A DNA stretch of 35,238 nt, from UHGV virus genome UHGV-0365687; one strand, 5' to 3'. The position numbers and the translations under genes were made by a program. The notes under the pieces are model-generated. The model saw only the letters and a list, made by a program, of their open reading frames with translations. It was not told the origin of the DNA and made no database searches. Position 1 is the stretch's first letter, and each line of letters opens with the position of its first letter. The stretch is from a virus. Positions 1-30,461 of the stretch are shown here, one piece after another.

Positions 1-33
1 AAAGAGTTCCTTTCAAATTTAAATAAGCGTTAA

Positions 34-56
34 GCCCACCACTCTTACTGGTGGGC
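34..56 (-). terminator. hairpin (8 bp GC-rich stem gcccacca/tggtgggc) in AT-rich context downstream of the hok-like gene; possible 3' end or fold-back element of the hok transcript
   Basis: Inverted repeat read directly; flanked by aaatttaaat-type AT-rich sequence. Confidence 0.3.
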
Positions 57-135
57 CTCAATTTAAATTTGGGTGCCACTTCGACCATACCCTGGCAACC
101 GATTGACGGGGGATTGCTCCCCCGTCGCGGTTTCC

Positions 136-276
136 TTACTGCTTACACTGTAAGAACGCCGCAAACTCCGCTCCCCAGAAGCTCATCCGTATTTCACACA
201 GCGAACCGTGCAACATCCAGATGATGAGGATTGCCGTCACGCAGAACGTGATGGCCGTAAGCGATTTTTGCGACAT
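136..276 (-). CDS. hok: Hok/Gef-family type I toxin (46 aa small membrane peptide)
   Basis: Manual translation MSQKSLTAITFCVTAILIIWMLHGSLCEIRMSFWGAEFAAFLQCKQ: N-terminal hydrophobic helix then SLCEIR and E-AAFL-C motifs typical of Hok/HokA/Gef; AAGGAG RBS about 8 nt upstream of ATG; below the 60 aa cutoff of the ORF track. Confidence 0.6.
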   Translation of the reverse strand: MSQKSLTAITFCVTAILIIWMLHGSLCEIRMSFWGAEFAAFLQCKQ

Positions 277-406
277 AGCACTTGCTCCTTTTCCGGAGAG
301 GCGCTAACCTTTCACTTGTCAAGGTAATGCGGTTAGGGCCTCGGTTAAACAGAGATGTTTTCCGGGGCCTTTCCACATCTGGCCTTCGGGTATTCCCTCC
401 GACCAT
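194..406 (-). CDS. mok-like overlapping reading frame (70 aa) covering the hok start
   Basis: ORF track frame overlaps hok start in a different frame, as mok does in hok/sok loci; no independent sequence signature. Confidence 0.3.
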   Translation of the reverse strand: MVGGNTRRPDVERPRKTSLFNRGPNRITLTSERLAPLRKRSKCYVAKIAYGHHVLRDGNPHHLDVARFAV

Positions 407-466
407 CAGCCGAAAGGCACCCGCGCGTAATCTATCGCTTTTTTGTTACTCCGGCAATTCTGCCTG

Positions 467-727
467 TTAATTCTGAGGTAAAGGCAAGCTCATCTGATTG
501 TTTCCCCTGTGTGAAGCTGGCAGCTCATGCCACGGGATACCTTCTGAAGAGTGAACGCCGGAGGCGTGTTTCGATGTGAATTTATGGAAAGCTTCCAGTG
601 TTGAGAAGCATACGCCGCATTCCAGGTTGTTACACTGGTAATACTTTTGCCGCACGGTGTTTGAATCATTTTCCGGACGACTGGTGCGGATACGGGCAGA
701 TGCGCCACAAAGCGGACAACGGAACAT
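467..727 (-). CDS. ogr: Ogr/Delta-family zinc-finger late-gene transcription activator
   Basis: MFRCPLCGASARIRTSR...YQCNNLEC: C-X2-C...C-X4-C arrangement and N-terminus resemble P2 Ogr; AAGGGAGG RBS upstream. Confidence 0.8.
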   Translation of the reverse strand: MFRCPLCGASARIRTSRPENDSNTVRQKYYQCNNLECGVCFSTLEAFHKFTSKHASGVHSSEGIPWHELPASHRGNNQMSLPLPQN

Positions 728-2036: not shown

Positions 2037-3221
2037 ATGAGTGAAACTCGTTTTCATGGTGCCCGTGTTACGGAAAATACCGACCTGGTAACAGCGATTA
2101 ACGATGTTGATTCCAGCGTTATTGGTATCGTGGCAACGGCGGATGATGCGGACGCGAAGCTGTTCCCGCTGAACAAGCCCACACTGCTGACCCGCGTCAA
2201 TGACGTGCTGGGAAAATGCGGAACAACGGGGACGCTTTATCGTGCGCTTAAGGCCATCGCAGACCAGGTGAGCACAAAGGTGATCGTCGTTCGCGTGGCT
2301 GAACACAAAGAAGAAGACGAAAAGACGCAGGATCAACTGGTTATCGGTGGTTCTGAGGATGACGGCAGCTATACGGGGATGTATGCGCTGCTTGTTGCAG
2401 AGCAGGATGAAAGCATCGGATACCGTCCGCGTATTCTGGCCGCGCCGGAGCTGGACACGGAGGCGGTGACAAAATCCCTGTGCGTGATTGCGGGTAAACT
2501 GCGCGCATTTGTGTATGCCTCATGTCACGGCTGTAACACGATGGCTGAAGCGATTACCTACCGCCAGAAATTCAACGAACGTGAAGTGATGCTCTTATGG
2601 CCGGACTTCATCGCCTACAACCCGAAAAGTGGCGAAAACGAAACGTTCCCCGCGCCTGCTTATGCGTGCGGCCTTCGTGCGTACATTGACCATGAGCAGG
2701 GCTGGCACAAATCGCTGTCCAACGTTCCGGTTAAAAATGTGCTGGGGATGTCGAGGCATGTGTTCTGGTCGTTGCAGGCCGAAGACAGCGATGCCAACAG
2801 CCTCAACAACAAAGAAATCACGACCATTATTCGTCGCAACGGGTTCCGCTTCTGGGGCAACCGCACACCGGAAACGAACGCCTACATTTTTGAGGTGTAT
2901 ACCCGAACCGCACAGGTGCTGGCTGATTCAATTGCGGAAGCGCAGTTTGAAACCATCGACAGTCCACTGACGCCTGCGAACGTGAAGGATGTTATCAGTG
3001 CCATCAGGGCAAAACTGGATTCACTGGTGACTGCCGGGAAACTGATTGGCGCGGAGTGCTGGTATGACGTGGTGGATAACAGCACCACGGATTTACGTCA
3101 GGGGCGTGTGCGTATTCGCTACAAATATACGCCCGTTCCGCCACTGGAAGACATGGAGCTTTACCAGACGTTTACTGATGAATACTTTGAACCCGCATTT
3201 GCGGTGCTGGGAGGTGCCTGA
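2037..3221 (+). CDS. FI: contractile tail sheath protein FI
   Basis: 394 aa, P2 FI-like sequence; stop overlaps FII start (ATGA). Confidence 0.9.
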   Translation: MSETRFHGARVTENTDLVTAINDVDSSVIGIVATADDADAKLFPLNKPTLLTRVNDVLGKCGTTGTLYRALKAIADQVSTKVIVVRVAEHKEEDEKTQDQLVIGGSEDDGSYTGMYALLVAEQDESIGYRPRILAAPELDTEAVTKSLCVIAGKLRAFVYASCHGCNTMAEAITYRQKFNEREVMLLWPDFIAYNPKSGENETFPAPAYACGLRAYIDHEQGWHKSLSNVPVKNVLGMSRHVFWSLQAEDSDANSLNNKEITTIIRRNGFRFWGNRTPETNAYIFEVYTRTAQVLADSIAEAQFETIDSPLTPANVKDVISAIRAKLDSLVTAGKLIGAECWYDVVDNSTTDLRQGRVRIRYKYTPVPPLEDMELYQTFTDEYFEPAFAVLGGA

Positions 3222-3733
3222 TGGCTGTGCCAAAACATCTTCGCTTTTTTACGCTGTTTGTGGATGGTGAAAACGAAGTGGGTAAGGTGACGTCCGTCAC
3301 TTTGCCTAAGCTGACGCGCAAAACCGACAGCTACCGGGGTGGTGGCATGATGGGGGCGGTAAGTATTGATCTCGGTCTGGACGACTCCGCGCTTGATGCG
3401 AGCTTTGTCATGGGGGGCGCAGTTCGTGAGCTGTTCCTTAAGTATGGCGGCACGATTGACGGCACGCTGCTGCGTTTTGCGGGTGAATACTACACCGATG
3501 CAGAAAGCGACCTGTATGAAGTCGAAATGCGCGGACGTGTGACGGAAATTGATATGGGGGAAGCCAAACAGGGCGAAGCCACATCACACACTTACGCCAT
3601 TAAAAACACCTACTACAAGCTGAGTGTTAACGATCGTCCGTTGTGGGAGATTGACCTGCTGAACTTCATTTACCGGAAGGACGGCAAGGACATTGTGCCC
3701 GATCGCATCCGTTCCGCGCTTGGGTTTGGCTGA
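3221..3733 (+). CDS. FII: tail tube protein FII
   Basis: 170 aa directly after the sheath gene, P2 FII-like. Confidence 0.88.
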   Translation: MAVPKHLRFFTLFVDGENEVGKVTSVTLPKLTRKTDSYRGGGMMGAVSIDLGLDDSALDASFVMGGAVRELFLKYGGTIDGTLLRFAGEYYTDAESDLYEVEMRGRVTEIDMGEAKQGEATSHTYAIKNTYYKLSVNDRPLWEIDLLNFIYRKDGKDIVPDRIRSALGFG

Positions 3734-3787
3734 TAAGTAATATGCAGGCGGCGCAGTGCGTCGCCTCTGACTGAAAGGAGTTTCCTG

Positions 3788-4153
3788 ATGAAAGAGACGA
3801 AAAACATCGATACCGAAAACACGGTAGTTACTGACACTGTGAAAGAAACCAGTGAGCGTGGCGTAAAACTTACCCAACCCATTGAGCGAGGCGGCGAAAA
3901 AATCACGTATGTGGAGATCACCGGGGCTATTGAGCAGGCTGGATCTCTGCGAGATTTGTCGCTGTCTGATGTGCTGAATCTGAAAGCGGAATCCATGTTT
4001 ACGCTGCTGTCACGCGTGACATCACCGCGACTGGATGAAGTGACGATCAAAAAAATGGCATCCCGTGACTTTATTCAGTTATGTGTGGTTGCCGTAAATT
4101 TTTTGAGCGGTGCGGACTCTGGCGGGAAGAACGAACAGGCGACGGAAGCCTGA
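3788..4153 (+). CDS. E: tail assembly chaperone E
   Basis: Position between tube and tape-measure genes; GAAAGGAG RBS; contains slippery heptamer. Confidence 0.8.
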   Translation: MKETKNIDTENTVVTDTVKETSERGVKLTQPIERGGEKITYVEITGAIEQAGSLRDLSLSDVLNLKAESMFTLLSRVTSPRLDEVTIKKMASRDFIQLCVVAVNFLSGADSGGKNEQATEA

Positions 4154-30141: not shown

Positions 30142-30461
30142 GGGGTGGCCTCTTTGGTTGTAAGTTTTGAAAACTCACCATCCAGAGCTGCGAAACTGTG
30201 GGTGGCGAGACGTACGGGGTTCGCAGTACCGGCAACCAAAGAACCCGGCCCGACCGAAGTCGGCCCCGTACGCCCCGCCATAATTCGTGTGCGAAAAAGA
30301 CGTGGCAATACAGTACGCACAAAAAAACCGCTGGCGCGGTTGTGCGCTTTGGTTGTCAGCAGGCTGCGAAACCCGGCACCCGTTTTATGAGGTGCAGCGG
30401 AAATGTAACCTGACTGATTGCGGCATGGCAAGCGGTTTTTTTGTGTGTGCATTATGATCAC
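30142..30461 (-). ncRNA. 320 bp non-coding, highly structured leader/intergenic element (candidate cis-regulatory RNA or sRNA)
   Basis: No credible ORF; nested inverted repeats (30211-30219/30264-30272, 30151-30160/30233-30242, 30321-30332/30431-30442). Confidence 0.25.

Follow-up and report, generated by a model that had tools for sequence, protein, structure and literature searches.

The hok gene and its mRNA

The window, that is, the whole stretch of 35,238 nucleotides analysed here from the virus genome UHGV-0365687, carries an ogr gene on the minus strand at 467-727 (PF04606, 52.4 bits). Immediately 3′ of ogr, an earlier note made from the sequence alone had placed a type I toxin locus of the Hok/Gef family that has a promoter of its own and structure in its 3′ UTR. 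This core reading proved correct, and each of the features described there was found where it had been placed (Table 1). The 46-residue peptide noticed for its Hok signature, MSQKSLTAITFCVTAILIIWMLHGSLCEIRMSFWGAEFAAFLQCKQ, matches the Pfam family HOK_GEF (PF01848) over residues 7-44 with 29.9 bits (cut-off 22, E = 4e-7). Hok/Gef membership is judged by a profile match above the curated cut-off, an N-terminal hydrophobic helix and a conserved Cys-Glu motif, and the profile match obtained clears its cut-off. The reading frame was checked for disruptions and none were present. The best-scoring NCBIfam model for the peptide is the HokA equivalog NF007290, but the score of 34 bits against a cut-off of 89 rules out that the peptide is HokA. 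Some databases label it 'protein HokA'; the name given by PGAP is Hok/Gef family protein (WP_000078916.1), and the exact peptide is found on at least 1000 contigs.

Table 1. Features of the hok/sok-type cassette in the window, with the basis on which each was assigned
Feature	Position	Strand	Basis
hok promoter −35, TTGCCG	452-457	−	read from sequence
hok promoter −10, TAGATT (17 nt spacer, 6 nt before +1)	429-434	−	read from sequence
Predicted full-length hok mRNA, ~390 nt	30-422	−	Rfam start, fold
tac element, 5′ GGGUGCCUUUCGGCU	408-422	−	MFE, centroid, RNAalifold consensus
70 aa frame, termed mok-like in the earlier note	194-406	−	ORF; judged fortuitous
ucb-like box, GGAAAGGCCCC	364-374	−	MFE of full-length and truncated RNA
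GAGG box, homologous to R1 mok SD	339-342	−	alignment to R1
Predicted Sok-target hairpin of truncated mRNA, stem GAGGC.CUAACC / GGUUAG.CGCCUC	298-342	−	MFE, 66-sequence consensus
Hypervariable loop of target hairpin, complementary to Sok 5′ tail	310-331	−	diversity scan
hok Shine-Dalgarno (SD) GGAG, 8 nt before ATG	285-288	−	sequence, fold, relatives
hok CDS, 46 aa toxin	136-276	−	ORF, Pfam match, conservation
3′ stem-loop just past hok stop	104-127	−	fold, compensatory changes
fbi element, GGUCGAAGUGGCACCC, 3′ partner of tac	71-86	−	fold, 66-sequence consensus
GC-rich hairpin downstream of fbi	34-56	−	fold
sok promoter −35, TTGCTC, overlapping hok SD on the opposite strand	282-287	+	sequence, relatives
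sok promoter −10, TAACCT (17 nt spacer)	305-310	+	alignment to R1 sok
Predicted Sok RNA, ~55 nt	318-373	+	fold; both ends inferred

Relatives of the cassette were collected by scanning IMG/VR with a 20 nt tac pattern, which biases the sample towards this clade. An intact Hok ORF of 46-48 residues is present in 68 of the 70 distinct related cassettes; in the other two, the ORF is frameshifted in one and the aligned ATG is missing in the other. Nucleotide diversity is 0.023 in the hok CDS and 0.062 over the whole mRNA, leaving out the 20 nt fixed by the search.

The promoter proposed just downstream of the ogr stop, TTGCCG-17-TAGATT at 457-429, is present exactly as described, with +1 at G422. 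The position of its −35 element relative to +1 is conserved (variants TTGCCC and TTGAAA) though the upstream contexts, ogr or lom, differ, and TAAATT, TAGAAT and TACATT occur at the position of the −10 element in the 70 related cassettes. By consensus the hok promoter (8 of 12 matches) and the sok promoter described below (6 of 12) are both weak. A generic promoter scan of positions 1-800 called neither of them, the hok promoter being missed because 8 of 12 matches fall below the scan threshold. Both are putative promoters, called from positional homology and conservation rather than from consensus strength.

An Rfam search for hok mRNA, which had been suggested as a check, gave a match to the full RF01794 model over 263-422 of the minus strand (48.4 bits, E = 2e-9). 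The match begins at 422, coinciding with the +1 predicted from the promoter. As the score is below the gathering threshold of 59, the leader is a significant relative outside the curated threshold. RF01794 bears the name sok; in practice it corresponds to the hok leader in the mRNA sense. Support is good for the predicted 5′ end of the mRNA at 422, whereas its 3′ end is uncertain.

The full-length mRNA folds with a minimum free energy (MFE) of −180 kcal/mol (z = −7.9), and none of 100 shuffled sequences folded as well. Its 5′ and 3′ regions are joined by 15 base pairs between tac and fbi, in both the MFE and the centroid structures. The pairing is kept in all 66 aligned relatives in the RNAalifold consensus, any single pair being broken in at most one of the 66, and variants of fbi preserve it through G-C/G-U changes. 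Since the 20 nt tac sequence served as the search key, tac is invariant by design of the search, and the information lies in its 3′ partner only. Homology to cassettes with different downstream cargo stops exactly at position 71.

Both hairpins noticed in the 3′ region are real. In the one just past the hok stop, two pairs have both of their bases altered, in 21 and in 23 of the 66 sequences, respectively, and by analogy this stem-loop is expected to protect the 3′ end of the processed mRNA; the equivalent structure of R1 shields Tr-hok from exonucleases (PMC9841398). The GC-rich hairpin downstream of fbi has a 10 bp stem and is limited to the cassette variant that carries a neighbouring TM2-domain gene, with most relatives having the canonical terminator ACCCGCAGCGTAAAAACTGCGGGTTTTCTTTTT in its place. 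It is possibly a weak terminator that belongs to the TM2-gene insert. With no good U tract, it is not a convincing intrinsic terminator, and hok mRNA may therefore read through into the TM2-com-methyltransferase genes, in which case fbi would be internal.

Antisense RNA, leader refolding and the mok-like frame

A Sok-like antisense RNA had been expected on the plus strand and reported as impossible to place. However, a promoter and a terminator are found at positions homologous to those of R1 sok. The TTG of the −35 element is invariant (variants TTGACT, TTGCCT and TTGTCT). The −10 element aligns with the TATCCT of R1 sok and is invariant in 66 of 66 sequences, an invariance confounded by the role that these bases also have in the stem of the target hairpin. 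The predicted Sok would consist of a single-stranded 5′ tail of 13 nt followed by a terminator hairpin at 335-371 (z = −3.7). The hallmarks of a cis-encoded antisense RNA, namely its own promoter, a terminator and complementarity to the leader, are thus present at the sequence level. The validated sokW of prophage Sp5 has the same promoter arrangement (TTGCCT-17-TAACC, oligo YO-597), and mutations in the sokW promoter abolished antitoxin function (PMC8621323).

Folding predictions point to a switch in the mRNA. The MFE partner of the ucb-like box is the GAGG box in the full-length RNA and tac in RNA truncated at the 3′ end. The tac/ucb stem is predicted in the RNAs that end at 100 or 96 and likewise in nascent RNAs with lengths of 90 and 150 nt, and a GAGGC/GCCUC hairpin is predicted in those truncated or nascent RNAs that are long enough to include both arms. 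The models thus predict that 3′ truncation would switch the RNA to the tac/ucb stem plus the target hairpin, the same tac/ucb switch as described for R1 (PMC9841398).

The earlier note had also described a 70-residue frame overlapping the start of hok in the mok arrangement. The frame is present, but it is probably not a functional mok, being closed in 38 of 66 distinct relatives. Its first ATG (406) falls within the 5′ tac stem, and its translation gave no match in Pfam. The alternative to be weighed is the full three-gene design of R1, in which this +2 frame, or a shorter one from TTG 322 or GTG 376, would be a real mok whose translation frees the hok SD and is the step that Sok blocks. In its favour, no stop interrupts the +2 frame of the window from the 5′ end until past the hok SD, a TTG lies 46 nt upstream of the hok ATG, near the position of the R1 mok start (58 nt upstream), 27 of the 66 distinct relatives also have an ORF with a canonical start that reads through the hok SD, and the counterpart of the R1 mok SD, the GAGG box, is conserved. 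On the other hand, in the 38 closed cassettes each of the three frames is stopped ahead of the hok SD, and no usable start follows, be it ATG, GTG, TTG or a near-cognate codon preceded by an SD. They include the 94-95% identical copies of P88 and Chuche, along with P88_4B11 and the Stx-phage copies, all of which keep an intact Hok ORF. Candidate mok starts are found 46, 76, 100, 103 or 130 nt upstream in different relatives, an unconserved position, and TTG 320-322, the next canonical start after GAGG, is absent from most relatives. The GAGG box is nearly invariant in the 66 sequences. In the window it has no start codon at SD distance, and it cannot serve as the SD of TTG 322, as the two are 16 nt apart, which is too far; the candidate starts of the open frame lack an SD at the proper distance. 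The hypervariable loop of the leader brings in stop codons freely, as would be expected if no ORF were under selection across it.

Reading frame was of no help in this decision. In an IncFII plasmid copy, mok extends hok in frame at the N-terminus, but that this holds in every case is ruled out by the numbering of R1, in which the mok AUG (116-118) and the hok AUG (174-176) are 58 nt apart and out of frame (PMC9841398). Because R1 mok is itself out of frame with hok, frame alone cannot reject the mok-like frame of the earlier note; conservation speaks against it. A three-codon mini-ORF, GUG-AAA-GGU-UAG (315-304), was considered separately as a coupling device and rejected, as it has no SD and its GUG is absent from Stx-type copies. 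A conserved mok with its own SD and start, as in the R1-type three-gene arrangement, was not found among the 66 sequences, and we regard the three-gene design as unlikely here. The clade, unlike R1, can probably do without a leader ORF of the mok kind, and the locus, in spite of its R1-like RNA switch, was not filed as a member of the three-gene hok/mok/sok group. Close relatives that differ in whether an ORF runs through the hok SD provide a natural experiment on the need for mok-type coupling.

How the hok SD would be opened without mok is left unexplained by the truncation model, which was examined as a possible mok-free path of activation in which loss of the 3′ end would itself free the SD. 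The GGAG pairs with CUCC (296-299) in a small hairpin. Its predicted unpaired probability in the partition function is about 0 in the full-length RNA and 0.06-0.11 in the truncated RNA (medians across the 66 sequences, 0.00 and 0.06), so that, although the MFE structure of the truncated RNA shows a partial opening, GGAG would be unpaired with a probability of about 0.1 or less in both forms.

The leader is also the site of the highest variability. Whereas the stems of the target hairpin are essentially invariant (pi 0-0.024), the loop that they enclose has a pi of 0.239, about ten times that of the toxin gene, and is the variability peak. The 44 P2-type cassettes have 15 loop alleles, and the full set of 66 has 25. 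The only pair of cassettes from the same genome in the sample (L049 and L091, IMG genome 2802429221; n = 1) have different loops. A variable loop flanked by invariant stems is a candidate specificity determinant, and this Sok-recognition loop of ~20 nt may evolve to keep co-resident cassettes orthogonal.

Conservation and phage origin

We consider it highly probable that positions 30-457 constitute a complete, functional type I toxin-antitoxin cassette of the hok/sok kind carried as a moron by a P88-like prophage; its molecular identity as a hok/sok-type cassette is very likely. The prophage is P88-like (Peduoviridae, Xuanwuvirus). The possibility that the cassette is an inactive relic, a passive passenger of the prophage comparable to several of the hok loci on the E. 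coli K-12 chromosome, is very unlikely. The Rfam score below the gathering threshold and the replaced terminator of the window variant would agree with decay. Against this, the 66 distinct copies retain, intact, the ORF, the hok and sok promoters, tac, fbi and ucb as well as the target stem and the 3′ stem-loop, the conservation spans two unrelated phage lineages, CDS diversity is low, several helices show compensatory changes, and matches to the region occur in 1548 of 5426 complete E. coli genomes, with up to 7 cassettes per genome. In addition, a peptide identical to that of the window, 72_1621, was cloned for arabinose-induced toxicity assays in a Hok survey of 2025-26, in which 42 of 45 homologs were toxic (bioRxiv 10.1101/2025.08.07.668861). 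The toxicity of the exact window peptide has been shown by others through the identical 72_1621.

Phages that were isolated or induced, namely P88, P88_4B11, PhiR44_2, Chuche, 500465-2 and Shae_phiSM, carry the cassette between ogr and int. With its own promoter and its position between ogr and int/att in packaged phages, it has the properties of a P2-family prophage moron. The suggestion that the region might be host chromosomal DNA flanking the attachment site, to which its location at the very edge of the window, past ogr as the last recognisable P2-type gene, lent some appeal, is excluded, because the cassette sits inside packaged phage genomes between ogr and int and recurs in ogr and lom contexts, and because phage cargo precedes the host gene raiA in an identical prophage of E. 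coli PE15. In PE15, genes for a TM2-domain protein, com and a DNA methyltransferase lie between the cassette and raiA, placing the prophage end ~1.5 kb beyond position 1 of the window. The cassette had been described as lying between ogr and the prophage end; it is indeed near that end, but these cargo genes separate it from raiA and it is not at the end itself.

In 128 fetched loci (8 from annotated records and 120 from IMG/VR), the preceding gene is ogr in about 99 and lom in about 20. In both cases, the cassette follows late-operon genes on the same strand (D-ogr to hok in Peduoviridae and lom to hok in Stx phages). Only 35 of 72,556 plasmid records contain the cassette, compared with at least 5000 for the R1-type Hok. 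An enrichment of Hok in prophages has been reported (bioRxiv 10.1101/2025.08.07.668861). Among defence models, PADLOC gave no match for Hok, the TM2 protein or Com, and the neighbouring methyltransferase matched only generic type II and orphan methyltransferase models.

Proposed mechanism, role and comparison with known systems

Taking R1 hok/sok and hokW-sokW of Sp5 as models for the expression of Sok and its ends, for 3′ processing and RNase III decay, and for what triggers the system biologically, we propose the following scheme. The weak, constitutive promoter would yield a stable mRNA of ~390 nt, in which pairing of tac (422-408) with fbi (86-71) would give a closed form, untranslatable and inaccessible to Sok. 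Slow trimming from the 3′ end to the stem-loop at 104-127 would take off fbi, upon which tac would bind the ucb box (374-364) and GAGG would pair with GCCUC to present a hairpin with a loop of ~20 nt. The short-lived Sok (~318-373, plus strand) would recognise this loop through its single-stranded 5′ tail, and pairing along the hok leader would bring about repression and RNase III decay. Should sok transcription be stopped or outcompeted, Sok would decay first and the processed mRNA would be translated, with the 46-residue Hok inserting into the inner membrane and causing cell death or lysis. Possible triggers are loss of the prophage, shut-off of host transcription by an infecting lytic phage and prophage induction.

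In terms of biological role, killing upon Sok depletion, in the service of prophage retention or the exclusion of other phages, has roughly an even chance of being correct. Assistance of lysis coupled to induction, in analogy to Sp5, is a somewhat weaker candidate, and it is improbable that the cassette has no current role. With the cassette fixed in a position distal to the late operon, late transcription that reads through may run into the sok promoter, which, if true, would time Hok release to prophage induction. The placement behind late genes shared by two unrelated phage lineages suggests such a link between late transcription and Hok release, and the link could explain the RecA-dependent loss of sokW in Sp5 (PMC8621323). 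Tentatively, and with less than even expectation, the observations can be joined in one reading, in which Hok cluster 72, to which the window peptide belongs, has lost mok, the loop acts as specificity determinant and late read-through sets the timing of Hok release; the RNA switch and the decay induced by Sok may then be all that controls Hok translation.

The hok/sok locus is the textbook paradigm of type I toxin-antitoxin systems. The identification of the locus adds little, as PGAP annotates the gene, the family is a textbook one, prophage enrichment of Hok has been reported and the toxicity of the peptide was shown by others. Literature searches on hok in P2-like phages or near ogr, on hok in Peduoviridae and on phage P88 returned no paper about this cassette. 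Two minor points are new, namely the hypervariable loop recognised by Sok and the same-strand placement downstream of late-operon genes, and such comparative by-products should be modestly useful to specialists.

Compared with R1 hok/mok/sok (the parB locus), the window cassette shares a Hok/Gef peptide with the SLCEIR...AAF core, a weak hok promoter, a long structured mRNA with a protective 3′ stem-loop, the tac/fbi closure, the alternative tac/ucb pairing on 3′ truncation, GAGG paired to a downstream box, and an antisense promoter at the homologous position with a terminator that is the complement of the GAGG/ucb hairpin. It differs in that the peptide has 46 residues rather than 52 (39% identity over 31 residues, which comprise the core), the leader is 27 nt shorter (hok AUG at +147 rather than +174), the clade has no conserved mok ORF and the cassette is phage-borne and rare on plasmids. 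Its score against the Rfam model, which was built from R1-like leaders, does not reach the gathering threshold. HokA of E. coli K-12, the best NCBIfam model for the peptide, is far below its equivalog cut-off.

Within Hok cluster 72, which is classed as of high abundance, 72_1621 is identical to the window peptide and 72_1589 to the Stx-phage peptide beside lom, and both were cloned for toxicity assays in the survey mentioned above (bioRxiv 10.1101/2025.08.07.668861), which is CDS-only by design and has mok, Sok, mRNA structure and phage position outside its scope. The best functional analogue, phage-borne like the window cassette, is hokW-sokW from Sp5, an Stx2 prophage of E. coli O157:H7 Sakai; by experiment, hokW-sokW is a toxin-antitoxin system of type I (Takada et al. 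2021, PMC8621323). Upon mitomycin C induction of Sp5, HokW rises and sokW falls, and hokW-sokW helps phage release (PMC8621323). HokW is nevertheless another paralog, of 51 residues, with an MKQQKAM start and a DYESEK end according to the primers of that study. In the hokW leader, GAGGC is followed at a distance of 7 nt by the AUG of a canonical mok start (oligo YO-592), and Sp5 is a lambdoid phage, whereas that of the window is P2-like.

The Hok peptide and the phage origin of its cassette

The ORF that the earlier note had read as a 46 aa Hok peptide, MSQKSLTAITFCVTAILIIWMLHGSLCEIRMSFWGAEFAAFLQCKQ, was undisrupted. The peptide matched Pfam HOK_GEF with 29.9 bits (curated cut-off 22) and displayed 39% identity across the conserved core to Hok of R1, the plasmid paradigm of hok/mok/sok. 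In complete E. coli genomes the ORF is labelled by PGAP as a Hok/Gef family protein (WP_000078916.1). An intact Hok ORF of 46-48 aa was present in 68 of 70 distinct cassettes; one was frameshifted and one had no aligned ATG. The identical peptide has been cloned for arabinose-induced assays. Of the 45 Hok homologs in those assays, 42 were toxic, and the peptide is none of the three non-toxic ones (bioRxiv 10.1101/2025.08.07.668861). The identification is correct, and the element itself is known, widespread and already annotated; its peptide has been tested by others.

Many complete E. coli genomes contain the region at 100% identity; 1548 of 5426 have a match, at up to 7 places per genome. Plasmids rarely carry this clade (35 of 72,556 records). 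The cassette was also found downstream of ogr, at 94-97% identity, in phages P88, P88_4B11, PhiR44_2, Chuche, 500465-2 and Shae_phiSM, and int lies on its far side in the Chuche record. The cassette is therefore phage DNA, and the proposal that it might be host DNA flanking the attachment site was discarded. In many Stx phages the same cassette adjoins lom (~81% identity). Among 128 related loci (120 from an IMG/VR scan with the 20 nt tac sequence and 8 from annotated records), the upstream neighbour on the same strand was D-ogr in ~99 and lom in ~20, with a few loci in other contexts.

Nor does the prophage end directly at the cassette, which corrects the earlier reading. The identical prophage in E. 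coli PE15 extends ~1.5 kb leftward past window position 1, up to host raiA, and a TM2-domain gene, com and a DNA methyltransferase lie in this stretch. Gene content 3' of hok varies (com and methyltransferase; TM2, com and methyltransferase; a TagO-like gene and a 297 aa ORF; or int directly), and homology with cassettes of other downstream cargo begins at the hok promoter and stops at position 71, where fbi ends. In most copies a canonical terminator, ACCCGCAGCGTAAAAACTGCGGGTTTTCTTTTT, follows fbi after ~25 nt. The window type has, in place of the sequence right after GGCACCC, AAATTTAAATTGAG, the 34-56 hairpin and the TM2 gene's ribosome-binding site. This hairpin has no good U tract and was not called by a minus-strand terminator scan, and the mRNA 3' end is therefore uncertain in this variant. 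Since the TM2 insert has taken the place of the hok terminator here, one transcript may cover hok and TM2.

Window position 1 is one base past the start codon of the 98 aa TM2-domain gene, whose ribosome-binding site (AGGAA) lies within 1-20 (minus strand). The TM2 gene, the com-family gene and the type II-like DNA methyltransferase (2564-4000 region of related locus L001) make up variable cargo in the stretch from hok to the prophage end, and this slot is filled by different genes in other P88-like phages. Many IMG/VR provirus records have the tac pattern at 268-287 from the contig end (for example L014, L022, L036, L050, L056, L058, L066, L075, L079 and L080). The cut that delimits these predicted proviruses therefore falls exactly on the hok stop codon, with hok taken as the last phage gene. 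These boundaries are systematically too short, the real prophages being longer (by 1.5 kb in PE15). Elsewhere in the window, neighbouring C4 and isrK matches (30198-30395, minus strand) resemble a c4-style antisense immunity element of P1/P7 type, here within a P2-family prophage.

The hok leader, the mRNA fold and Sok

The putative hok promoter put forward earlier is present as described, and the full-length match to Rfam RF01794 starts at the very base that this promoter gives as +1. The strand matched by this family, named 'sok antitoxin', is that of the hok mRNA. The hok AUG is the end of the family's consensus, and what the model represents is therefore the hok leader in mRNA sense rather than Sok RNA; the match locates the leader and says nothing on which strand Sok is transcribed.

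Features of the cassette and of the antisense RNA region, in window coordinates
Feature	Position	Strand	Basis or detail
ogr	467-727	-	PF04606 match
hok promoter	457-429	-	TTGCCG-17-TAGATT; +1 at G422
RF01794 match	263-422	-	48.4 bits, E = 2e-9; below gathering score 59
tac	408-422	-	mRNA 5' element
70 aa frame	194-406	-	ORF reading
ucb-like box	374-364	-	alternative partner of tac
GAGG box	339-342	-	homologue of R1 mok SD
Target hairpin	298-342	-	predicted Sok-recognised hairpin
sok promoter -10 TAACCT	305-310, 17 nt spacer	+	aligned with R1 sok -10
sok promoter -35 TTGCTC	282-287	+	aligned with R1 sok -35
Hok ORF	136-276	-	46 aa
fbi	86-71	-	3' partner of tac
C4 antisense RNA	30198-30285	-	RF01695, 87.1 bits, above Rfam gathering
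isrK	30321-30395	-	RF01394, 65.9 bits, above Rfam gathering

Folding of the RNA from 422 to 25 gave an MFE of -180 kcal/mol (z = -7.9), and the hairpins described earlier at 104-127 and 34-56 were both real. In the predicted fold, the first 15 nt of the mRNA, GGGUGCCUUUCGGCU, pair with GGUCGAAGUGGCACCC in the tac/fbi closure that defines hok mRNAs (design summarised in PMC9841398). Truncation just past the 104-127 stem-loop switched the MFE structure: tac was now paired with GGAAAGGCCCC, and GAGGC (342-338) with GCCUC (302-298), forming a long hairpin with a loop of ~20 nt. This corresponds to the tac/ucb and SD/dcb stems of the processed, Sok-accessible form of R1 (PMC9841398).

Conservation was examined in 66 distinct mRNAs, the Hok ORF count alone using the 70 cassettes. 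RNAalifold recovered the tac-fbi helix, whose 3' arm varies solely between G-C and G-U. Of the 92 consensus pairs, 11 had compensatory changes on both sides, the clearest cases being two pairs in the stem-loop at 104-127 (changed in 21/66 and 23/66 sequences). No variation was seen in the sok -10 or in the target stem's 3' half. An AUGUG motif (374-378, minus strand; mRNA positions 45-49), the source of the far-upstream AUG/GUG starts of an occasional long +2 frame, was likewise invariant in 66/66 related cassettes.

Sok, which the earlier note could not place, was placed on the plus strand, with a predicted start near 318, by homology to the R1 sok promoter (TTGCGC-17-TATCCT). The experimentally validated sokW of the Stx2 prophage Sp5 has TTGCCT-17-TAACC (from oligo YO-597, Takada et al., PMC8621323). 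The predicted Sok RNA would be ~55 nt, its ends deduced from sequence, with a 13 nt single-stranded 5' tail, a hairpin at 335-371 and then UUUCC. As in R1, the hairpin is the complement of the mRNA GAGG/ucb hairpin.

The mok-like frame

The mok of R1 starts out of frame, 58 nt upstream of hok, and its translation is needed at least as far as the hok SD (PMC9841398). In an R1-type IncFII copy (pMTY1886_IncFII; L004, 344-403), the mok AUG lies 57 nt upstream of the hok AUG, in frame; the frame of mok relative to hok thus differs even between close relatives. The 70 aa mok-like frame proposed for the window does exist; the +2 frame stays open and offers three candidate starts, which lie 130, 100 and 46 nt upstream of the hok ATG. 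The frame had no match in a Pfam search, and all three frames were closed before the hok SD in 38/66 distinct cassettes, P88 and Chuche included; judged from this comparison, it is not a conserved gene. The 38 closed cassettes contained no ATG, GTG, TTG or SD-preceded near-cognate start past the last stop, and the conserved GAGG box had no start codon at SD distance. This Hok clade, we conclude, probably works independently of mok. The predicted unpaired probability of the hok SD was at most ~0.1 in both full-length and truncated RNA, and the predicted folds do not account for its opening.

Induction and the hypervariable loop

Killing upon Sok depletion is the behaviour expected from the architecture. 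The cassette starts 9 nt past the ogr stop with no terminator between, and late transcription should therefore read in against the sok promoter; in Stx phages, the cassette follows lom. We infer that such interference with the sok promoter may be the trigger at induction. In Sp5, mitomycin C leads to loss of sokW and production of HokW in a way that depends on RecA, and hokW-sokW doubles phage release (PMC8621323). R1 hok/sok on a high-copy plasmid lowered T4 plating, as cited in PMC8621323.

Among 44 P2-type cassettes, the loop of the target hairpin (~310-331) had a nucleotide diversity of 0.239 and 15 alleles. The corresponding diversity was 0.023 for the hok CDS, 0-0.024 for the flanking stems and 0.062 for the mRNA without the 20 nt that the tac search fixed; this is a descriptive comparison of unique sequences with gapped columns and without a neutral-variation model. 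The loop was also the peak of a second variability analysis. A specificity determinant would look like this loop. The sole same-genome cassette pair in the sample, L049 and L091 (IMG genome 2802429221), has differing Sok-recognition loops, CATACAACCTTCGCAAGTCGTA and one of the CCGTCAACCTAGCAAGTGATA type; this is consistent with orthogonality, as a single anecdote (n=1). That mok independence, loop-based orthogonality and late-operon coupling are combined here is a tentative proposal, which we regard as rather unlikely to hold in full. In its 5' half, the loop is complementary to the single-stranded 5' tail predicted for Sok; in R1, first contact is made by this element.
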